In this document: positions 2,643 to 50,665 of the stretch, piece by piece
Layout: each line of letters begins with the position of its first letter
Numbering within the stretch: the stretch's first letter is position 1
Source of the DNA: Oscillospiraceae bacterium
GTDB lineage: Bacteria > Bacillota > Clostridia > Oscillospirales > Ruminococcaceae
NCBI GenBank assembly: GCA_012729855.1
Contig: JAAYCI010000097.1
Coordinates: forward strand, 12,101 to 76,100
Direction of reading: 5' to 3'
Length of the DNA: 64,000 nt
The notes under the pieces: generated by a model
Databases searched by the model: none
What the model was told of the DNA's origin: nothing
The model's input: the letters and a program-made list of their open reading frames with translations, nothing else
Made by a program: the position numbers and the translations under genes

Positions 2643-2820
2643 TATACTAAAACCACTTCAAAACCGATACGGTTTTGAAGCCGCGCGAGAGAATCGCGCG
2701 GAACCGCCCGAAGGGCGGTTTGGTTGCCGTTCATAGTCAAACGCACACCCGCAGGGTGTGCCGGCAGGCTTCGCCTGCCGTCTTGAAAACCGTTTCGGTT
2801 TTCAAGTGGTTTGACTATAT
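2643..2820 (+). repeat. Hairpin-rich MITE-like element, copy A (full length, about 178 bp including TA flanks)
   Basis: Nearly identical to copy D (30355-30532). Termini are TATACTAAAACCACTTCAAAACCG ... CGGTTTTCAAGTGGTTTGACTATA. Each end is itself a hairpin, and several GC-rich hairpins lie inside. Confidence 0.85.
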
Positions 2821-3276: not shown

Positions 3277-3450
3277 TATGCTGGAACCCATTCAAAACCA
3301 ATACGGCTTTGAAGCCGCGCATAACAGGTGCGCGGAAATCGCCTTGGGGCAATTGGTTCGCCGTTCATAGTGAACCGCACACCTGCAGGGTGTGCCGGCA
3401 AGCAAAGCCTGCTGCCTTGAAAACTGCGTTTTTAAGGGGTTCAACTATAT
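3277..3450 (+). repeat. Hairpin-rich MITE-like element, copy B (diverged full-length copy)
   Basis: Same architecture and conserved blocks as copy A (TATGCTGGAACCCATTCAAAACC ... GTTCATAGTGAACCGCACACCTGCAGGGTGTG ... CAACTATA). TA dinucleotides flank both ends. Confidence 0.8.
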
Positions 3451-5758: not shown

Positions 5759-5811
5759 TATACAGTCAAACCACTTGAAAACCGAAACGGTTTTGAAGTG
5801 GTTTTAGTATA
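5759..5811 (-). repeat. MITE-like element, copy C (53-bp internally deleted mini form, inverted orientation)
   Basis: TATACAGTCAAACCACTTGAAAACCGAAACGGTTTTGAAGTGGTTTTAGTATA equals the right end joined to the left end of the full-length element. It forms one long hairpin. Confidence 0.8.
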
Positions 5812-11939: not shown

Positions 11940-13298
11940 ATGCAGATCGTGATTGTGGGTGACGGCAAGGTGGGTTTTGCCCTGACCCAGATGCTGATAG
12001 ACGAAGAACACAGCGTGACGGTGGTGGACTCTGACCCCAAGGTGCTGGAGCGCACCCAGGAGGCCTGCGACGCCATGGCCGTGCAGGGGCACGGGGCCTC
12101 GCGCACGGTGCTGCTGGAGGCCGCGGCCGACACCGCCGAGCTGCTGATTGCCGCTACCGACAGCGACGAGGTGAACCTGCTGAGCTGCCTGATAGCCAAA
12201 AAGCTGGGCTGCCAGCAAACCATTGCCCGGGTGCGCAACCCCGAATACGCCGCCGACCTGGCCCTTTTGCGGGACGAAATGGGCCTGACCTTTGCCATTA
12301 ACCCCGAGGAGGCCTGCGCGCGGGAGATTTTCCGGCTGCTGCAGTTCCCCTCGCTGCTGGCGCGCGAGCAGTTTGCCAAGGGCAAGATGGAGATCGTCAA
12401 GCTGAAGGTGCGGGAGGGCTCGCCCTTGGCGGGCGTGCCGCTGTTTAACCTGTACAGCGCCGCCCGCGTGCAGGTGCTGGTGTGCGCGGTAGACCGCGAC
12501 GGCCAGGTGATTATACCCAACGGCAGCTTTGTGCTGCAGCAGGGGGACGATATTTTTGTAACGGCCGCGGTGGAGGACCTGACCGCCCTTTTGAAAAACC
12601 TGGGCATTGTTACCCGCAAAACCACCCAGGTAACGCTGGTGGGCGGCAGCCGCCTGGCGCTGTACCTGGCCCGGCTGCTGCTGCGCAGCGGCATGGGGGT
12701 GAAGATTATTGAGGTGAACCCCGAGCGCTGCCATTACCTGAGCGAGGTACTGCCCGCCGCCGACATTGTGGAGGGCGACGGCACCGCGCAGGAGGTGCTG
12801 CTGGCCGAAGGGGTGGAGCGCAGCGACGCGCTGGTGGCCCTTACGGGCATTGACGAGGAGAACATTGTATTGTCCATGTTCGCGCGCAACATGGGCATGC
12901 AAACCACCATTACCAAATGCAACCGCAGCCAGTACACGGTGATGTTCAACAAAATGGGCATTGATACCGTGGTGAGCCCCAAGATAACCATAGCCGAGGA
13001 GATTGTGCGCTATGTGCGCGCGCTGGACAACTCGGTGGGCAGCGCCATGATTACCCTGCACCAGATTGCCGGCGGCAAGGCCGAGGCGCTGGAGTTTGAG
13101 GCCGACCAAAACTCCCGGGTGCTGGATATCCCGCTGACCACGCTGGAGCTGAAGCCCGGCATCCTGATTGCCGGCATCTCCCGCGGCATGAAGACCATCA
13201 TTCCCAGGGGCGACTCGGTCATCCGTGACGGCGACTCGGTGGTGGTGGTTACGGCGGCCGACCGCCGCATTTATACCCTAGACGATATTCTGGCCTGA
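11940..13298 (+). CDS. trkA: Trk system potassium uptake protein TrkA (double RCK)
   Basis: 452 aa. MQIVIVGDGKVG is a Rossmann motif, repeated in the second half (VTLVGGSRLA). Confidence 0.92.
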   Translation: MQIVIVGDGKVGFALTQMLIDEEHSVTVVDSDPKVLERTQEACDAMAVQGHGASRTVLLEAAADTAELLIAATDSDEVNLLSCLIAKKLGCQQTIARVRNPEYAADLALLRDEMGLTFAINPEEACAREIFRLLQFPSLLAREQFAKGKMEIVKLKVREGSPLAGVPLFNLYSAARVQVLVCAVDRDGQVIIPNGSFVLQQGDDIFVTAAVEDLTALLKNLGIVTRKTTQVTLVGGSRLALYLARLLLRSGMGVKIIEVNPERCHYLSEVLPAADIVEGDGTAQEVLLAEGVERSDALVALTGIDEENIVLSMFARNMGMQTTITKCNRSQYTVMFNKMGIDTVVSPKITIAEEIVRYVRALDNSVGSAMITLHQIAGGKAEALEFEADQNSRVLDIPLTTLELKPGILIAGISRGMKTIIPRGDSVIRDGDSVVVVTAADRRIYTLDDILA

Positions 13299-13540
13299 CG
13301 GCGTGGCCGGGCCTGCCAAACGGCAGCGGGCCCGGCGGCTGCGGCCCTGTTTCCTTTTATACCCAGCATAATAATTTAAACACGTGGCATTCGCCGCCGG
13401 GCACGCCCCTGGGTGTGCCCGGGTGCCATGCATACGAATCACCGCGTGGGTACGCGGCGGGCGGGTGGTATCTGTCTGGTTTAAAGCGGTATGCTTTTAA
13501 ATGTGATTCAGTCTGCCCCCCGCTGTGAGGTGTAAGCACA

Positions 13541-14995
13541 TTGAATTTAAAGTCCGCCGGCAAGTTCCTCGGCTTTTTGATAAGCGCCGAGGCGGTTTTT
13601 TTGTTGCCGCCGCTGTTTGTGGCGCTGGGCTATGGGGAGGTGCCGGAGGCGCTGTCGTTTTTGGCCACCGCCATTATTTGCGGGGCGGTGGGCGGTGGGC
13701 TGGTGCTGCTGTGCCGCAAGCCCTAGCCCGGCGTATACGCCCGCGAGGCCTTTGTGGTGGCCGGCGCCGGCTGGATACTGGTAAGCCTGCTGGGCGCCCT
13801 GCCCTTTGTGATGAGCGGCGAGATTCCCAGCTACATCGACGCCTTTTTTGAGTCCGTAGCCGGATTCACCACCACCGGCACCTTCGCGTTGTCCGATATC
13901 GAGCTGTGGAGCCGCTCGATGCTGTTTTGGCGCAACTTTATCCAGTGGCTGGGCGGCATAGGCGTGCTGGCCTTTGTGGTGGCGCTGATGGGCTCTAAAA
14001 ACGGGGGGTTTGGCATGCACCTGCTGCGGGCCGAAAGCCCGGGCCCGCGCATGGGCAAGCTGGCGCCCAAAACCCGCCGCAGCGTGCATTATATTTATAT
14101 CGTGTACATCAGTCTTTCAGCCATATGCCTGGGGCTGCTGCTGGCCGGCGGCATGCCCACCTACGAGGCCTTTTGCACCATGTTTGGCGTGGCCGGCACC
14201 GGCGGCTTTGGCGTGCTGAACGACAGCATGGCCAGCTATTCTTCCTACCTGCAAACGGTGTGCACCATTTTTATGCTGCTGTTTGGCGTGAACTTTATTT
14301 TATACCCCCTGCTGCTGCGAAAAGAGTGGCGCAGCGTGCTGAAGGACGAGGAGCTGCGCCTGTACGCGGCCGTGGTGGCGGGGTCCATCGCCGTCATCAC
14401 CGGCGCGCTGCTGGTGGCGGGCCTGGGCGGGGTGGGCGACAGCCTGCATAATGCTTCTTTTATGGTCAGCTCGGTCATTACCAGCACGGGCATGTTTATT
14501 GGCGATTATGCCCACTGGCCGGCGCTGGCGCGCTCGCTGCTATTTCTGCTGATGATTGTGGGGGCGATGGGCGGCAGCACGGCCAGCGGGCTGAAGCTTT
14601 CCCGCGTGCTGATTTTGTTCCGCAGCCTGAAGGCCGGGCTGCACCGCCTGCTGCACCCCCGCAGCGTGAAAAAGGTGCACCTGAACGGCAAGCCGCTGAG
14701 CGACGAGGTTGTGGGCCGCACCCAGATGTTCTTTTTTCTCTACTGCGCGTTCATTATGGTGGCGTCGCTGCTGATAGCCGTGGACGGCCAGGCGCTGGAG
14801 ATAAACCTTTCGGCGGTGATGGCCTGCATCAACAACGTGGGCCCCGGGTTCGGGCTGGTAAGCTCTGTCTCCCATTTTGGCGATTTTTCGGTTTTCTCCA
14901 AGTTCATACTGGCCATCATGATGCTGGTGGGCCGTTTGGAGATTTTCCCCATTTTGATTTTATTCACGCCGTCTACCTGGCGGCGCAAAACCTGA
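13541..14995 (+). pseudogene. trkH: TrkH family K+ transporter, copy 1, interrupted by an in-frame TAG at codon 62
   Basis: ORFs 13541-13726 and 13754-14995 share one frame and are separated only by TAG 13724-13726. Read through the stop, the sequence aligns end to end with the adjacent trkH copy. Confidence 0.6.
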
Positions 14996-15059: not shown

Positions 15060-16484
15060 TTGTGGGTGGAGGCGGTGCTGATACTGCCGTCGGCCGCGGT
15101 GGCGCTGGGCCACGGCGAAACCCATGGGGTGCTGGCGCTGCTGGCTACGGCGGCCATTTGCGCGCTTTTGGGGCTGCTGCTGTTTCTTTTGGGGCGCGCG
15201 CGGCAGGAAAAACAGGTGCTGTACGCCCGTGAAAGCCTGGTGGTGGCCGGCGCCGGCTGGATATTGGTGAGCCTGCTGGGCGCCCTGCCGTTTTTCCTTA
15301 GCGGGGAGATCCCCAATTATATCGACGCGTTTTTTGAGGCGGCGTCTGGTTTTACCACCACAGGCGCCTCCATTTTAAGCAATGTGGAGGCCATGAGCCG
15401 GGGGCTGCTGTTCTGGCGCAGCTTCACCCACTGGATGGGCGGTATTGGCGTTCTGGTGTTTATTCTGGCGCTGGTGCGCAACCAAAATGGCGGCGGGTTT
15501 ACCCTGCACCTGCTGCGCGCCGAAAGCCCGGGGCCGCAGGTGGGCAAGCTGGCCCCGCGCATGCGGCAGTCGGTGCAGCTGCTGCTGGGGGTGTACCTGG
15601 CGCTGTCGGTGGTCAACCTGGTGTTTCTGCTGGCGGGGGGCATGCCGCTGTTTGACGCGCTTTGCACCATGTTTGGCACGGCGGGCACGGGTGGGTTTGG
15701 CATTAAAAACAGCAGCATGGCGGGCTATTCGCCCTACCTGCAAACGGTTACCACTGTTTTTATGGCGCTGTTTGGCGTGAACTTCACGCTGTATTACCTG
15801 CTGGTGCGCAAGCAGTGGCGCGGGGCGCTGAAGGATGAGGAACTGCGCCTGTATGTGGGCATCATGCTGGGCAGCATCGTGCTCATCATGCTGTCGGTGC
15901 TTACGTCGGGCCAGCTGCCGTTTGGCGAGGCGCTGCACCACAGTGCCTTCACGGTAAGCTCGGTGATGACCACCACCGGCTTCGCCACCATCGACTTTGA
16001 CCTGTGGCCGGAGTTCAGCCGCGCCATATTGCTGATATTGATGTTTGCCGGCTCAATGGCGGGGTCCACCGGCGGCGGCATTAAAACGGCGCGGCTGCTT
16101 ATTTTATGGAAAAGCGCGCGGGCCGGCGTGCGCCGCATGCTGCACCCCCGCAGCGTGAAGGCCGTGCACATAAACGGCCGCCCGCTGGACGACGCCGTGG
16201 TGAAGCGCACCCACCAGTATCTGGTGATCTATTGCGGGCTGACGCTGCTGGGCTTTGCCGTGGTGGCGCTGGACGGCCACACCCTGGAGACCAACATTTC
16301 GGCCGTGGCCTCGTGCCTGAACAACATTGGCCCCGGGCTGGGGCTGGTGGGGCCCAGCGCCAACTACAGCATTTACTCGGGGCTTTCCAAAGTGGTGCTG
16401 ACGCTATATATGCTGGTGGGCCGGCTGGAGATTTTTCCCATTTTGATTTTGTTCGCGCCCTCCACCTGGCGGCGCAAAGCCTGA
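15060..16484 (+). CDS. trkH: TrkH family K+ transporter, copy 2
   Basis: 474-aa ORF, paralogous to copy 1 along its whole length. The conserved N-terminus continues upstream to an ATC codon at 15021, which is preceded by GGGAGGTG, so the true start is uncertain. Confidence 0.88.
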   Translation: MWVEAVLILPSAAVALGHGETHGVLALLATAAICALLGLLLFLLGRARQEKQVLYARESLVVAGAGWILVSLLGALPFFLSGEIPNYIDAFFEAASGFTTTGASILSNVEAMSRGLLFWRSFTHWMGGIGVLVFILALVRNQNGGGFTLHLLRAESPGPQVGKLAPRMRQSVQLLLGVYLALSVVNLVFLLAGGMPLFDALCTMFGTAGTGGFGIKNSSMAGYSPYLQTVTTVFMALFGVNFTLYYLLVRKQWRGALKDEELRLYVGIMLGSIVLIMLSVLTSGQLPFGEALHHSAFTVSSVMTTTGFATIDFDLWPEFSRAILLILMFAGSMAGSTGGGIKTARLLILWKSARAGVRRMLHPRSVKAVHINGRPLDDAVVKRTHQYLVIYCGLTLLGFAVVALDGHTLETNISAVASCLNNIGPGLGLVGPSANYSIYSGLSKVVLTLYMLVGRLEIFPILILFAPSTWRRKA

Positions 16485-20206: not shown

Positions 20207-23200
20207 TTATTTGGGCTCGTACAAAGCGCCCAGGCGCTGCAGGTAGGCGTAGCGGTCTTTGCTTTGGTCTGCCGCTTCGCTAAACAGCTTGTCGGCGCGG
20301 TCGGGGAAGCTCAGCTTCAGGCTGCTGTAGCGGGTTTCGTTTCCAATAAACTCCAGGTAGTCGCCGGTGGGCTCCTTGCTGTCCAGCGTGAAGGGGTTTT
20401 TGCCCTCGGCTTTTTTGCTGGGGTCGAACCGGAAGTTGAACCAGTAGCCGGCCTGCACAGCCTTTTTCATCTCGCTCTGGCAGTTTACCATGCCGCCCTT
20501 GATGCCGTGCATCTCGCAGGGCGCGTAGCCGATGATGAGGGAGGGGCCGTGGTAGCTCTCGGCCTCGGCAATGGCCTTGATGGTCTGGTTTTGGTCGGCG
20601 CCCATGGCAATTTGGGCCACGTACACATAGCCGTAGGCCATGGCCATCTCGGCCAGGCTTTTTTTGCCAATGTTCTTGCCGGCGGCGGCAAACTGCGCCA
20701 CCTGGCCGGTTTGGCTGGCCTTGCTGGCCTGGCCGCCGGTGTTCGAGTACACCTCGGTGTCAAACACAAAGACGTTTACGTCTTCGCCGCTGGCCAGCAC
20801 GTGGTCCAGCCCGCCGTAGCCAATGTCGTAGGCCCAGCCGTCGCCGCCGAAGATCCACACGCTTTTCTTGGAGAGGTAATCCTTCTCGGCCAAAATCTGC
20901 TCGGCGGTGGCGCAGGCCTCGCACACGCAGTTTTTCACGCCTTTTTCCTTCAGGTTTTTGAAATAGTCCTCCACCTTGCCAATGCGCTCACCAAACTTGT
21001 TTTTGGCAAAATCGGAGTGGACATACTCCAGACCCTCGTCCACGCTCATCACGCCGTCCTGCAGCTGCGCGATATAGGCGGCCGTGGCGGTTTCGTTGGC
21101 CTTGCCGTCATCGAAGGTGTCCAGCCATTTTTGCGCGGCCTCCCGCAGCGGGGGCGTGGTGTCGGCGGCCAGCATCTTTTCCGTCAGGCGCTTCAGGCGG
21201 GCGCGAATGGCCTTTTGGCCCAGGTACATGCCGTAGCCGTTCTCGGCGTTGTCCTCAAACAGGCTGTTGGCCCAGGCGGGGCCCTGGCCATTGCGCTTAC
21301 TGATGGTATAGGGGCTGGTGGCCGCGGGGCCGCCCCAGATGGACGAGCAGCCGGTGGCGTTGCTGATATACATCCGCTCGCCATACAGCTGGGTAACCAG
21401 GCGGGCGTAGGCGGTTTCGGCGCAGCCGGCGCAGCTGCCGCTGAACTCCAGCAGGGGCTGGTTGAACTGGCTGCCCTTCACGCTGGTCTCGCTCATCATG
21501 CCGTCCTTCTTGGAAACGTTGGCCACGCACCAGTCAAACACTTCCTGCTGGGGCAGCTGGCTTTCCTGGCCCTTCATCTCCAGCGCTTTGCCGGGGGCGG
21601 GGCACACCTGGGCGCACACGCCGCAGCCCATGCAGTCCAGCGGGCTGATGGCCTGGGTGAACTGGTACTGGTCCACGTCCTTGCCCTTCATGGTGGCGTG
21701 TTTGAGGGCCCCCGGCGCTCCCGCCATGTCGGCCGCATCCAGCGCGAAGGGGCGGATGGTGGCGTGCGGGCACACATAGGCGCACTGGTTGCACTGGATG
21801 CACTTGTCGGCCTGCCACTCGGGCACGTCCACGGCCACGCCACGTTTTTCGTAGGCGGCGGCGCCCTGCTGGAAGGTGCCGTCGGCGTGCTCAATAAAGG
21901 CGCTCACCGGCACGTCGTCGCCGTAGTTCAGGTTCACCGGCTCCATGATGGTGTGCACCATGGTCTCCAGCTTGGCGCTGCCACCCGCACCAGGCTTTGC
22001 CAGGTACGCCTTCTGGCTGCGGATTTCATCGGCCAGCAGGCAGCCACCGCACTGGCAAATGGTTTTGCCGGCAGCTTTGGCGTCCAGCAGCGCCTCGTAA
22101 ACACCGGGATAATGCTCGTCGCGGTATTCTTTGGTCATCACATTTTCGGCAATGTTGATTGAATAGTCGATGGGGGCGATGCATTCGTCCATCTCGGCGA
22201 TATACGCCTCGGTGGCTTCGGCGTTGGCCGCAGCGTCGTCATAGGTGTCCAGCCACTGTTGGGCAACGGCCTTCAGGTCATCGTGCACGCCGTGCTCCAT
22301 CTGCATCAATTTCTCGGTTTTGGCTTTCAGCTCTGCGCGCACGGCCTCGGCGTCTGCCCGCTTGGCCAGGTAGCCCTTCCGGCTGCGGATATCGTTGGCC
22401 AGCAGGCAGCCGTCGCACTGGCACAGGGTGATGCCCTTTTCCTTGGCTGCCAGCAGGCGCTCCAGCACGCCCGGGTAGTGGGCCTCGCGGTACTCCTTGG
22501 GCATTACATCCTGTGCGATGTGCAGGGAATAGTCCACGTCGGCGATGCACGCGTCCATTTCGGCAATGTAGGCCGCGGTGGCTTCGGCGTTGGCCGCTTC
22601 GTCGTCGTAGGTGTCCAGCCATTTCTGGGCGGCGGCCTTCAGGTCCTCGTGCACGCCGTGCTCAATGCTGATGAGCTTCTCGGTTTTGGCTTTCAGCTGC
22701 GCGCGCATGGCCTCGGGGCTCACACGCTTTTCCAGATAGTGCTTCTCGCTGCGAATTTCGTCGGCCAGCAGGCAGCCGTCGCACTGGCACAGGGTAATGC
22801 CCGCCGCCTTGGCCTTGTACAGGCGCTCCGGCACGCCGGGGTAGTACTTTTCCTGGTACTCCTTGGGCATCACGTTTTCCACAATGTTGATGGAATAGTC
22901 CACATCGGCGATGCACGCGTCCATCTCGGCGATGTAGGCCGCGGTGGCTTCGGCGTTGGCCACGGCGTCGTCATAGGTGTCCAGCCATTTCTGGGCGGCG
23001 GCTTTCAGGTCCTCGTGCACGCCGTGCTCGATGGTGATGAGCTTCTCGGTCTTGCGTTTCAGCCGGGCGCGGGCAGCCTCGGGGCTCTCGTGCCTGGCCT
23101 TGAGGGGCGCGTCCTTCCAGTCGGCGGGAATGTCCAGCTTGACGATGGCGTCCACGCCGGCGTCGATGGCCTTGTAGTTGCTCTGCACAATGGCGTCGCC

Positions 23201-24979
23201 CTTGGCGGCGTAGCTCTTGTAGGCAGCGTCCTTCATGTATTTCACGGCGTCGTCAATGGGGATAACGCCCGACAGCTTGAAGAAGGCGCTTTGCAAAATG
23301 GTGTTGGTGCGCTTGCCCATGCCGATGTCGCGGGCGATGTCGATGGCGTTGACGAGGTAGACCTCCACATTGTTTTCGGCGATGTAACGCTTGGCCTCGC
23401 CGGAGAGGTGGCCGGCCAGCTCCTCGGGTGTCCACTGGGCGCTCACCAAAAACTTGCCGCCGGGCTTCACGTCGCGCACCATTTGCAAGCCCTTGATGAT
23501 GTAGGCCGGGGTGTGGCAGGCCACGAAGTCGGCCTTTTTCACGTAGTAGGGGGCCTTGATGGGCTTGTCGCCAAAGCGCAGGTGGCTGATGGTGACACCG
23601 CCGGTTTTTTTGCTGTCGTACTGGAAGTAGGCCTGCACGTATTTGTCGGTGTGGTCGCCGATGATCTTGATGCTGTTCTTGTTGGCGCCCACGGTGCCGT
23701 CGCCGCCCAGGCCAAAGAACTTGCAGCTGACGGTGCCGGCCGGGGTGGTGTCGGCGCAGTCGTCGCGCAGGGGCAGGCTGAGGTGGGTCACATCGTCGTT
23801 GATGCCGATGGTGAAATTGTTTTTGGGCTGCGCCGCGGCCAGGTTCTCGTACACGGCGAAAATCTGCTGGGGCTGGGTATCCTTGCTGCTCAGGCCGTAG
23901 CGGCCGCCCACCACGGTGGCGTCCACCTTGCCGGCCAGCGCGGCCAGCACGTCGATGTAAAGCGGCTCGCCCAGGGCGCCGGGCTCCTTGGTGCGGTCCA
24001 GCACGGCGATGTTCTTCACGGTTTTGGGCAGGGCTTCGATGAGCTTATCGGCGCAGAAGGGGCGGTAGAGCCGCACCTTGACCAGGCCCACCTTTTCGCC
24101 GGCGGCCATCAGGTAGTCGATGACTTCCTCGGCCACGTCGCAGATGGAGCCCATGGCCACGATGACACGGTCGGCGTCGGGTGCGCCGTAGTAGTTGAAC
24201 AGGCCGTAGCTGGTGCCCAGCTTTTTGTTCACCTCGCCCATGTAGTGCTCCACAATGCCGGGCACGGCGGCGTAGTACTGGTTGGCGGCCTCGCGGTTCT
24301 GGAAGAAGATGTCGGGGTTCTGGTGGCTGCCGCGCATGGTGGGGTGCTGGGGGTTCAGCGCGCGGGCGCGAAAGCCGGCCAAGGCCTCTTGGTCGATCAT
24401 GCCGGCCAGCTCGTCGTAGTCCCAGGTTTCGATTTTTTGGATCTCGTGGCTGGTGCGGAAGCCGTCGAAGAAGTTGAGGAAGGGCACCCGGCTTTTGAGG
24501 GAGGCCAGGTGGGCCACGGGGGTAAGGTCCATCACTTCCTGGGGGTTACTTTCGGCCAGCATGGCAAAGCCGGTTTGGCGGCAGGCGTAAATATCGGAAT
24601 GGTCGCCAAAAATGGAGAGTGCGTGGGTGGCCACCGAGCGGGCCGTGCAGTTGATGACGGCCGGCAGCAGCTCGCCCGCCATTTTGTACATGTTGGGAAT
24701 CATGAGCAGCAGGCCCTGGCTGGCGGTGTAGGTGGTGGTGAGGGCGCCGGCGTTCAAGGACCCGTGCACCGCGCCGGCCGCGCCGGCCTCGCTTTGCAGC
24801 TCGATAACGCTCACTTCGTCGCCAAAGATGTTTTTCAGGCCCTGCGCCGACCAGGTGTCGGTGATTTCGGCCATGGGGGACGACGGCGTGATGGGGTAGA
24901 TGGCGGCAACTTCGGTAAAGGCATAGCTGGCGTGGGCCGCCGCTGTGTTGCCGTCCATGGTTTGTTTGGCTCTGGGCAT
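20207..24979 (-). CDS. nifJ: Pyruvate:ferredoxin (flavodoxin) oxidoreductase, expanded to about 1590 aa
   Basis: Canonical PFOR motifs run throughout: the YPITPSS N-terminus, two CxxCxxCxxxCP ferredoxin motifs, and GGDGWAYDIGYGG (TPP). Start set at ATG 24979 after AGGAGG; the track ORF extends to 25141. Confidence 0.95.
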   Translation of the reverse strand: MPRAKQTMDGNTAAAHASYAFTEVAAIYPITPSSPMAEITDTWSAQGLKNIFGDEVSVIELQSEAGAAGAVHGSLNAGALTTTYTASQGLLLMIPNMYKMAGELLPAVINCTARSVATHALSIFGDHSDIYACRQTGFAMLAESNPQEVMDLTPVAHLASLKSRVPFLNFFDGFRTSHEIQKIETWDYDELAGMIDQEALAGFRARALNPQHPTMRGSHQNPDIFFQNREAANQYYAAVPGIVEHYMGEVNKKLGTSYGLFNYYGAPDADRVIVAMGSICDVAEEVIDYLMAAGEKVGLVKVRLYRPFCADKLIEALPKTVKNIAVLDRTKEPGALGEPLYIDVLAALAGKVDATVVGGRYGLSSKDTQPQQIFAVYENLAAAQPKNNFTIGINDDVTHLSLPLRDDCADTTPAGTVSCKFFGLGGDGTVGANKNSIKIIGDHTDKYVQAYFQYDSKKTGGVTISHLRFGDKPIKAPYYVKKADFVACHTPAYIIKGLQMVRDVKPGGKFLVSAQWTPEELAGHLSGEAKRYIAENNVEVYLVNAIDIARDIGMGKRTNTILQSAFFKLSGVIPIDDAVKYMKDAAYKSYAAKGDAIVQSNYKAIDAGVDAIVKLDIPADWKDAPLKARHESPEAARARLKRKTEKLITIEHGVHEDLKAAAQKWLDTYDDAVANAEATAAYIAEMDACIADVDYSINIVENVMPKEYQEKYYPGVPERLYKAKAAGITLCQCDGCLLADEIRSEKHYLEKRVSPEAMRAQLKAKTEKLISIEHGVHEDLKAAAQKWLDTYDDEAANAEATAAYIAEMDACIADVDYSLHIAQDVMPKEYREAHYPGVLERLLAAKEKGITLCQCDGCLLANDIRSRKGYLAKRADAEAVRAELKAKTEKLMQMEHGVHDDLKAVAQQWLDTYDDAAANAEATEAYIAEMDECIAPIDYSINIAENVMTKEYRDEHYPGVYEALLDAKAAGKTICQCGGCLLADEIRSQKAYLAKPGAGGSAKLETMVHTIMEPVNLNYGDDVPVSAFIEHADGTFQQGAAAYEKRGVAVDVPEWQADKCIQCNQCAYVCPHATIRPFALDAADMAGAPGALKHATMKGKDVDQYQFTQAISPLDCMGCGVCAQVCPAPGKALEMKGQESQLPQQEVFDWCVANVSKKDGMMSETSVKGSQFNQPLLEFSGSCAGCAETAYARLVTQLYGERMYISNATGCSSIWGGPAATSPYTISKRNGQGPAWANSLFEDNAENGYGMYLGQKAIRARLKRLTEKMLAADTTPPLREAAQKWLDTFDDGKANETATAAYIAQLQDGVMSVDEGLEYVHSDFAKNKFGERIGKVEDYFKNLKEKGVKNCVCEACATAEQILAEKDYLSKKSVWIFGGDGWAYDIGYGGLDHVLASGEDVNVFVFDTEVYSNTGGQASKASQTGQVAQFAAAGKNIGKKSLAEMAMAYGYVYVAQIAMGADQNQTIKAIAEAESYHGPSLIIGYAPCEMHGIKGGMVNCQSEMKKAVQAGYWFNFRFDPSKKAEGKNPFTLDSKEPTGDYLEFIGNETRYSSLKLSFPDRADKLFSEAADQSKDRYAYLQRLGALYEPK
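21989..23086 (-). repeat. Three tandem 366-bp (122-aa) coding repeats inside PFOR
   Basis: The anchor GTGCACGCCGTGCTC recurs at 22283, 22649 and 23015, an exact 366-bp period. The peptide repeats are RA.LK.KTEKL...HGVH.DLKA.AQ.WLDTYDD...C(Q)C.GC. Confidence 0.92.
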
Positions 24980-25198
24980 GTGTTTGTCCTCCTGTCGCGT
25001 TTGATGATGCTTTGTTCTCAATACTCTGCCGGTGTTTCGCACTTTTTGAACAAGCTTAAAAACACCATACGCCGCCGCGCATGCGGCGACGCCCCGTTCT
25101 GCCTGCGGAAGCGCTTTGGGCTTCCGCTTGCGCTGTTGCACCGGAACAATAGGGTCACTTTATCGCATCGGCACCCCTCTAAAAGCGCGTTTGAAGTT

Positions 25199-30354: not shown

Positions 30355-30532
30355 TATACTAAAACCCCTTCAAAGCCGATACGGTTTTGAGGCCGCGCGA
30401 GAGAATCGCGCCAAACCGCCCTTCGGGCGGTTTGGTTGCCGTTCATAGTCAAACGCACACCCGCAGGGTGTGACGGCAGGCTTCGCCTGCCGTCTTGAAA
30501 ACCGTTTCGGTTTTCAAGTGGTTTGACTATAT
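30355..30532 (+). repeat. Hairpin-rich MITE-like element, copy D (full length)
   Basis: Near-identical to copy A over about 178 bp, with TA dinucleotides on both flanks. Confidence 0.85.
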
Positions 30533-50077: not shown

Positions 50078-50093
50078 TGTTCCACGTGGAACA
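50078..50093. other. parS centromere-like site 1
   Basis: TGTTCCACGTGGAACA is a perfect 16-bp palindrome, one position away from the B. subtilis parS TGTTCCACGTGAAACA. Confidence 0.85.
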
Positions 50094-50351: not shown

Positions 50352-50367
50352 TGTTCCACGTGGAACA
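50352..50367. other. parS centromere-like site 2
   Basis: The identical TGTTCCACGTGGAACA lies 274 bp from site 1, upstream of soj-spo0J. Confidence 0.85.
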
Positions 50368-50417
50368 AAAGGGATTGTTTTCTTTATTTGATGCTTTTTT
50401 TCAAAAATAGAGTGTGC

Positions 50418-50589
50418 TATACTAGAACCACTTCACGGCCAGTATGGCTTTGAAGTGGCACATAAGCACGGGCGCCAATTTCCCGAAGGGCGGCAGGCTT
50501 GCTGTTCGTGGTAGCAAACACCGGCAAAGGGATGCCGGTGGGCATTGTCAGCGGCCCAAAACCGTGTTTTCAAGGGTATGTGACTATAT
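50418..50589 (+). repeat. Hairpin-rich MITE-like element, copy E (strongly diverged)
   Basis: It shares the TATACTAGAACCACTTCA start, the CCCGAAGGGCGG hairpin, the GTTCGTGGTAGCAAACACC block and the TTTTCAAGGGTATGTGACTATA end. TA dinucleotides flank it. Confidence 0.7.
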
Positions 50590-50665
50590 AAGAACGATAT
50601 ATACAGCAAAGCCAGAAAAGCCGGCCGCAGTGGCCAGGCTAAGAGACCAGAGGGAGGCAGATTTT

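Follow-up and report, generated by a model that had tools for sequence, protein, structure and literature searches.

A 64-kb stretch of DNA (hereafter, the window) from an uncultured organism of the Ruminococcaceae/Oscillospiraceae carries five copies of a short, hairpin-rich repeat. We interpret this repeat as a family of non-autonomous DNA transposons (MITEs), with a probability of about 0.8. The copies are dispersed and intergenic without orientation bias, they are absent from the corresponding sites of relatives, and they occur together with shortened variants. These properties support the original prediction, in which the repeat was read as a non-autonomous MITE. Literature searches by sequence string and by topic returned no description of this repeat family, and the kind of system to which it belongs is already known.

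Five copies of one repeat

Five copies were predicted in the window, four of full length (A, B, D and E) and one mini form (C), at the following positions.

2643-2820, plus strand: copy A, full length, 178 bp (covariance model, 221 bits)
3277-3450, plus strand: copy B, 174 bp, second subfamily (covariance model, 137 bits)
5759-5811, minus strand: copy C, mini form of 53 bp in which the left end is fused to the right end
30355-30532, plus strand: copy D, full length, 178 bp (covariance model, 200 bits)
50418-50589, plus strand: copy E, 172 bp, in the spacer between rsmG and parA, diverged and with a decayed structure (covariance model, 45.6 bits)

The sequence itself, nhmmer and a covariance model (R1; 178 positions, 69 pairs), the last of which had been proposed as a check, all bear out these coordinates: nhmmer and the model each recovered exactly the five copies, and no others, from the 64 kb. 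A weak match of the model at 13279-13516 was rejected because it consists of GC-rich hairpins only. A repeat search likewise grouped the copies (families D2, D7 and D8, inverted pairs I1-I3). A degenerate terminal consensus of 24 nt, TATASTNAAACCACTTSAAAACCG, has six matches in the window at up to 3 mismatches, versus 0.00 expected from 100 shuffles, and both ends of A, C and D match it at up to 2 mismatches. Copies A and D share 95% identity. B is 67% identical to A without gaps and about 75% identical by BLAST, and E is about 68% identical to A by BLAST; the mean column identity across the four full copies is 80%. The division into four full-length copies and a mini form stood, with the amendments that C is inverted and that E has decayed (z = -2.5). 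C lies in the opposite orientation, and its left end is fused to its right end through a repeated hairpin arm. It is a deletion derivative, as left by deletion between the near-identical arms of both terminal hairpins. Full copies measure 172-179 bp and variants 53-150 bp, below the limit of about 300 bp used for bacterial MITEs. All are non-coding; the open reading frames across them are chance frames only, in agreement with the claim that no copy encodes a protein.

Copy A is located between the stop codon of DarA and the start of holB, within an operon on the minus strand, and copy B is located between the stop codon of a decarboxylase gene and the ribosome-binding site of DarA. The other genes of the window are syntenic housekeeping genes such as dnaA, yidC, mnmE, mnmG, rsmG, parA, parB and serS.

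Hairpins, fold and compensatory changes

Copy A is composed of two inverted termini, interior hairpins and a central segment.

2643-2680, plus strand: left inverted terminus, made of the outer 13 nt TATACTAAAACCA and hairpin H1 (2656-2680), a perfect stem of 11 bp
2681-2720, plus strand: interior hairpins H2 (2681-2701) and H3 (2702-2720)
2721-2742, plus strand: central conserved segment TGGTTGCCGTTCATAGTCAAAC
2743-2780, plus strand: interior hairpins H4 (2743-2761) and H5 (2762-2780)
2782-2820, plus strand: right inverted terminus, made of hairpin H6 (2782-2806) and TGGTTTGACTATAT

The inverted termini of A are identical at 21 of 24 positions, as expected from the predicted inverted repeats of about 24 bp, and at 33 of 38 positions when the embedded hairpin is counted. 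The outer 13 nt beyond the hairpins, TATACTAAAACCA and TGGTTTGACTATA, are inverted repeats of each other. H1 and H6 are perfect 11-bp stems in A, so that the description of each end as a perfect local hairpin is exact for this copy, and they are 96-98% paired across copies. The interior of A holds four GC-rich hairpins, where three or four had been proposed. In addition, a long-range stem of 10 bp is formed in A by pairing of the internal ATAGTCAAAC with the 3' GTTTGACTAT. ATAGTCAAAC lies in the central segment and repeats the terminal motif a third time, inside the element. Its helix (helix 5) is 92% paired, and the same motif acts as the end of an 88-bp half element found elsewhere (L049/L050).

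As RNA, copy A folds with -102 kcal/mol (z = -12), and as DNA with -72.5 kcal/mol (z = -15). The minimum-energy fold is the same under both sets of parameters and consists of two domains, each with a closing stem and three hairpins. The 5' domain is closed by AACCA/TGGTT and contains H1 (the left terminal hairpin), H2 and H3; the 3' domain is closed by ATAGTCAAAC/GTTTGACTAT and contains H4, H5 and H6 (the right terminal hairpin). Over 19 copies this two-domain structure is 88% paired. Compensation between copies is local and not long-range, as had been claimed. In the local-hairpin structure 13 pairs are changed on both sides, which was reached in 0 of 500 shuffles and is well above all slid controls, versus 2 doubly changed pairs in an end-to-end terminal stem, which 216 of 500 shuffles reached. 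A long stem joining both ends was rejected for this lack of covariation. C-G pairs of H3 are replaced by U-A in a compensated manner between copies. Compensated pairs in H2, H3 and H4 separate two subfamilies, one like A and D and the other like B and L016, and further compensated pairs were found in H6 (two, in L016) and in H1 (one, in L036).

These features could also be those of structured RNAs that are selected by the host, that is, cis-regulatory leaders, insulators or small RNA genes that resemble transposons. We consider this very improbable. The very stable fold and the 13 pairs with compensatory changes speak for it. Mismatches in the stems, however, comprise 36 G-T and 23 A-C, with neither strand clearly preferred. 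Furthermore, loops recur as their own reverse complement (GAA to TTC in H3, GCA to TGC in H4, TTT to AAA in H5). This repeated flipping suggests inversion of palindromes or template switching at the DNA level, which can mimic compensation without selection on RNA. In copy E the fold is lost (z = -2.5 and -2.9, versus -12 for A). E is the oldest and most diverged copy. It no longer folds much better than shuffled sequences, so that the structure is kept in proliferating lineages and not at resident sites. It is true that A and B must be co-transcribed in the decarboxylase-DarA-holB operon, that E is located in the parAB leader, and that the outward-reading terminal hairpin, followed by the T-rich tail GGTTTT, is terminator-like; judging from this, copies within operons might attenuate downstream genes. 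However, the orientation of the element is unbiased with respect to neighbouring genes, and the same sites in relatives have no copies. Rfam gave no match either: at the gathering threshold only two tRNAs pass in the whole window, and in E-value mode the best match over the elements scored 18.7 bits against a threshold of 56. Thus, the statement that the repeat is not a named RNA family stood at both settings.

Six short palindromes, GC-rich or A/T-rich and strictly extragenic, also recall a mosaic of independent palindromic units of the REP/BIME type with a RAYT-type enzyme. This is the least probable of the alternatives, since none of H1-H6 occurs as a stand-alone hairpin elsewhere in the window and what recurs is always the entire element or a shorter form derived from it by deletion. 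REP/BIME units are single palindromes of 20-40 bp that are found alone or in mosaics. The palindromes here lack GTAG or CGTC heads, the tags described in PMC3733652, and no RAYT is present in the window.

Another explanation is a single-stranded DNA element of the IS200/IS605 type, in which a Y1 HUH transposase would recognise the two subterminal hairpins on one strand; the element would insert 3' of a TATAC(T)-like host sequence without duplication and would end in ...CTATAT. Perfect subterminal hairpins at both ends that are compensated locally, with end-to-end pairing that does not covary, agree with this explanation. Nevertheless, we consider it unlikely. True inverted repeats continue for 13 nt beyond the hairpins, although elements of this type should have none, and the hairpins are perfect palindromes without a bulge or mismatch that would distinguish the strands. 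In IS608, a bulge or mismatch in the hairpin lets TnpA tell the strands apart.

Absence from relatives and genomic context

Copies A and B are absent from L051, L052, L053 and L058, in which DarA is 85-90% identical. In element-free relatives DarA abuts holB with a spacer of 0-17 bp, and the decarboxylase-DarA spacer, which is 250 bp in the window (76 bp plus B), is 76-85 bp. Copy E is absent from the rsmG-parA spacer in L055, L056, L057 and L065. Moreover, no family copy was found in the origin regions of L055, L056 and L057 (10-20 kb) and L065 (5.8 kb), nor in L051-L053. The relatives without A, B and E have flanking proteins that are 73-90% identical. In the source species itself, 10 of 10 contigs examined for its DarA (13 are on record) carry B, and A as well where they reach it, so that the copies showed no polymorphism within the species.

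The boundaries of the insertions were approached in several ways. Flank-to-flank searches among all loci returned no exact empty site. The spacers of L051-L053 and L058 are too diverged for boundaries to be placed at base level, and an exact-protein look-up of the genes beside D, which sought an empty site there, returned no record. Two observations concern the spacers themselves. The 119 bp at 2821-2939, between the DarA stop codon and A, have no counterpart in relatives and hold a short GC hairpin, CCAGGGGCATCCCCGG. The rsmG-parA spacer can be long without an element, with 839 bp in L056 (4510-5350) and 452 bp in L057 (8515-8968).

Every copy is intergenic, the orientation with respect to neighbouring genes is about 50/50, and both orientations of the element occur inside co-directional gene pairs. 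Within the window, E lies right of dnaA and has the same orientation as A, B and D, which lie left of it (n = 4), and the GC skew keeps its sign across the window. A preference for the lagging-strand template, as for the IS200/IS605 type, predicts opposite orientations on the two sides of dnaA, and the co-orientation speaks against it, weakly with four copies.

Copies outside the window

Further copies had been expected beyond the window, and at least 20 further insertion loci with unrelated flanks were found, one of them in another species and nearly all of them on metagenome contigs. A species-level scan for the terminal-hairpin pattern, with one genome for each of 185,579 species, returned eight stretches. 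Only one of these, L016 from Ruminococcaceae bacterium OttesenSCG-928-I18, is a family member; it is located downstream of grdA. The other stretches, L012 and six more, were rejected as chance-like palindromes, the six being without a profile match. A scan of metagenomes returned 32 loci, mostly from the JGI series Ga01233xx and from ENA entries that carry the label bioreactor metagenome, and profile matches were obtained in 30 of them (all except L022 and L032). These 30 loci, the window and the earlier loci together give 39 distinct combinations of sequence and flank, on which the count of at least 20 further loci is based. No family member was found by plasmid BLAST, phage BLAST or a pattern scan of viral contigs. 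DarA and ParB of the source organism are 73-90% identical to those of metagenomic relatives, OttesenSCG single-cell genomes and Oscillospiraceae MAGs.

The copy in OttesenSCG-928-I18 lies between grdA and a cupin-HTH regulator gene of the same direction. In the relatives compared at this locus, L067 and L068, the grd operon is arranged differently, with the grd genes divergent from the cupin-HTH regulator, and the spacers are unalignable. Since the gene order differs between L016 and L067/L068, a breakpoint of the arrangement lies at the position of the element.

Shortened variants were found repeatedly. In a 137-bp variant H3 is fused with H4, and a similar deletion of 33 bp has occurred inside A itself in L010. 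The right hairpin region is missing from variants that measure about 150 bp and about 131 bp. In L049/L050 a half element of 88 bp begins at the internal terminus-like motif, and a second mini copy is present at another locus, L023. In the deletion, half and mini variants alike, the breakpoints fall in repeated hairpin arms.

Contigs L001, L003, L004 and L007-L010 stop inside a copy. Frequent ending of source-species contigs in a copy is expected for a dispersed repeat. Hybrid elements that join the flanks of different copies were observed in L039, L044 and L002; the element at 7687-7864 of L039, for example, has the left flank of D and a foreign right flank. L019 and L044 have the left flank alone in common, and in L002 and L040 a 32-nt left-end fragment directly precedes a full copy. 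Either copies have recombined with each other to join the flanks in L039, L044 and L002, or the assembly has produced chimeras at the repeat.

Element ends and the parAB promoter

The conserved stretch extends from (T)TATACT through GACTATAT, and the flanks beyond it are unrelated and A/T-rich. Nearly every complete copy is bounded by TA...TA, as predicted, but the prediction needs amendment, because the TA lies within an invariant TATA and the flanks are asymmetric. A T follows the right TATA in 20 of 21 copies, which gives GACTATAT, and a T precedes the left TATACT in 15 of 21; thus, the flanks are not symmetric. Since TATA is its own reverse complement, a duplication of TA, TAT or TATA is inseparable from the invariant ends. 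A TA target-site duplication would be compatible with these sequences. For an IS200/IS605-type element, the asymmetric flanks and the conservation that ends exactly after GACTATAT would be natural.

Two comparisons give part of the answer. At the B locus, when B is removed from the window under a TA(T) duplication of 2-3 bp, the resulting GCGATAAGGAGG aligns without gaps to GCGGTAAGGAGG of L058. In a longer view, ...ACAGCGATAAGGAGG aligns without gaps to ...AATGCGGTAAGGAGG of L058, which is the closest relative, and other models require indels of 2-3 nt. This comparison favours a duplication of TA or TAT and fits the IS200/IS605 type less well.

At copy E the left end coincides with a promoter element.

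50415-50423, plus strand: TGcTATACT, extended -10 box of the parAB promoter, overlapping the first 6 nt of E

The rsmG-parA spacers of the window and of four element-free relatives have in common parS sites and the box (G)TG(T)GCTATACT (TGcTATACT). The window, L056 and L057 have a T-run that follows the parS sites and precedes TATACT by exactly 16 nt; in L055 and L065, too, the TGcTATACT box comes after parS. Because the TATACT box is conserved in element-free relatives, the first six bases of E coincide with an ancestral -10 hexamer. That the left TATACT at E belongs to an ancestral host promoter would be explained most simply by duplication-free insertion 3' of it, in agreement with an IS200/IS605-type element, but the E locus is ambiguous and can also be read with a TA duplication. 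A consensus scan found no sigma-70 promoter on the element itself.

The window has two perfect parS-like sites, TGTTCCACGTGGAACA, at 50078-50093 and 50352-50367, and one or two such sites are conserved alongside the TGcTATACT box in L055, L056, L057 and L065. The native parAB leader of L065 (about 1010-1035) reads TATACTAGAAAC, and the left end of the element reads TATACTAGAACC. AAGAAC directly follows the right ends of both E (window 50579-50600) and L016 (1750-1775). The common AAGAAC and the likeness of the L065 leader reflect either a target that resembles the end of the element or chance.

How the element may move

A scan of 20 window ORFs against Pfam revealed no transposase domain, consistent with the claim that no transposase is visible in the window; TnpA and TnpB, which an IS200/IS605-type element would use, are likewise not present there. 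The fetched loci have no terminal motifs apart from those of the small copies, and hence no autonomous partner with the same ends was found in them.

Between an IS630-like and an IS200/IS605-like mechanism, we lean towards a transposase that binds the terminal inverted repeats. We infer that such a transposase, encoded elsewhere in the genome, would bind the inverted ends and move the element in trans. Insertion would occur at a TA within an A/T-rich, -10-like TATA sequence between genes. Duplication of the TA would then produce the junction TA+TACT, which could restore a TATACT box correctly spaced from the promoter DNA upstream of it; in the opposite orientation TA+TAGT could equally rebuild a -10 box. 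Since the element ends in TA+TACT and TA+TAGT, insertion in a -10 box would rebuild a TAnnnT hexamer at the upstream junction. A rebuilt -10 box, as may be the case at parAB (copy E), would help insertions to survive. Inserted copies would be co-transcribed with their neighbours in either orientation, and the compact fold might aid their tolerance. With time, copies would decay or lose segments by slippage between similar hairpin arms, which would give the 137-, about 150-, 88- and 53-bp forms.

The interior hairpins might be maintained in two ways. Proliferating copies may be under selection to fold compactly and harmlessly as DNA or RNA. Alternatively, quasi-palindromes may be corrected by template switching, an option suggested by the repeated flipping of loops to their reverse complement. 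Two observations speak against the reading as a MITE moved by a TIR-binding transposase. The asymmetric flanks (T in 15 of 21 versus 20 of 21) are unusual if the transposase is symmetric and works on inverted ends, and the compensated interior pairs are not required if the ends alone are recognised.

A combination of both mechanisms can also be imagined, although it is not likely. The element would be mobile as single-stranded DNA via its hairpins, by an HUH-type or other enzyme, despite its inverted ends. Its targets would be -10-like TATAC(T) sequences, its TATACT and TATAGT ends would rebuild a functional promoter at the junction, and it would serve as a portable structured leader or insulator. 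If this were true, the family would be a mechanistic cross of TIR elements and IS200/IS605-type elements, its hairpins would be the functional core, and the element would be tolerated even at the origin-proximal parAB promoter.

Other repeats and genes of the window

Some features unrelated to the repeat family were observed. A pyruvate:ferredoxin oxidoreductase-like ORF of 1644 aa (20207-25141, minus strand) contains three tandem repeats of 366 nt (21991-23022) that are 77-79% alike, and a related repeat segment at about 21069-21148. The 366-nt repeats encode a repeated insert of about 122 aa between POR (aa 479-663) and EKR (aa 1059-1103). Such a repeated insert of about 122 aa is not known to be usual in pyruvate:ferredoxin oxidoreductases. 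Two tandem TrkH paralogues (13754-14995 and 15060-16484, plus strand), with 72-74% DNA identity, are located downstream of trkA. Just before the first of them, at 13530-13730, lies a stretch that resembles the TrkH N-terminus and has an interrupting TAG codon.

Significance and comparison with known elements

Assemblies of this Clostridia lineage from metagenomes break at the repeat, which probably also yields chimeric contigs (L002, L039, L044). With a model of the family, such genomes are easier to annotate and scaffold. Within the family, proliferating copies with compensated hairpins contrast cleanly with an old copy that has decayed, and copy E is an insertion that sits on the parAB -10 box without destroying it. 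Known prokaryotic MITEs come for the most part from Proteobacteria, from cyanobacteria and from a few bacilli and cocci. A 2024 review mentions neither Clostridia nor Firmicutes by name (PMC10969869).

We compared the family with small elements that resemble it in one respect or another; it has no sequence relationship to Correia/NEMIS or bcr1. Palindrome-associated elements derived from IS200/IS605 have no inverted terminal repeats and no target duplications. The family here resembles them in its subterminal hairpins at both ends, its lack of coding capacity and its conserved short left-flank sequence, but differs in that the inverted repeat extends 13 nt past each hairpin.

Bacterial MITEs are described as shorter than 200 bp, with terminal inverted repeats, 5'-TA-3' termini, target-site duplications and stable folds (PMC2229807), and the family here agrees with this description in its properties. 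For RUP of pneumococcus, a small MITE with insertion at TA, mobilisation in trans by an IS630-family transposase with matching ends has been proposed (PMC2229807). The likeness lies in a small Firmicute MITE with TA insertion, although a TA duplication would be only compatible with the data here. RUP is 107 bp long, has short terminal inverted repeats (9 contiguous bp) and has a known matching insertion sequence, IS630-Spn1, whereas none was found here in the window or in the fetched loci.

The ends of Correia elements begin with TATAGT. The Correia/NEMIS elements of Neisseria are non-coding, of about 105-155 bp, with a terminal inverted repeat of 24 contiguous bp, 5'-TA-3' termini, a TA duplication and promoter-like end sequences (PMC2229807, PMC10969869). 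They are co-transcribed and folded as RNA, and these two reviews report no transposase partner (PMC2229807, PMC10969869). As small non-coding repeats with TA termini they are among the closest functional analogues of the family here. They belong to another phylum, however, and their fold is one long stem from both ends, whereas here each end folds on itself and four interior hairpins are added; no IHF site is evident in the family here.

A repeat of about 155 bp from the Bacillus cereus group (Firmicutes), bcr1, has mobile-element properties, and its position is not conserved between strains (PMC3184786). It is transcribed, compensatory changes keep its cruciform-like fold of two independent stem-loops, and some copies have repeatedly lost their structural stability (PMC3184786). 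bcr1 is flanked by 5-bp direct repeats, in contrast to the long, hairpin-containing terminal inverted repeats and the TATA ends of the family here. Nevertheless, as a Firmicute repeat with a two-arm fold that is kept by compensation and lost in some copies, bcr1 is also among its closest functional analogues.
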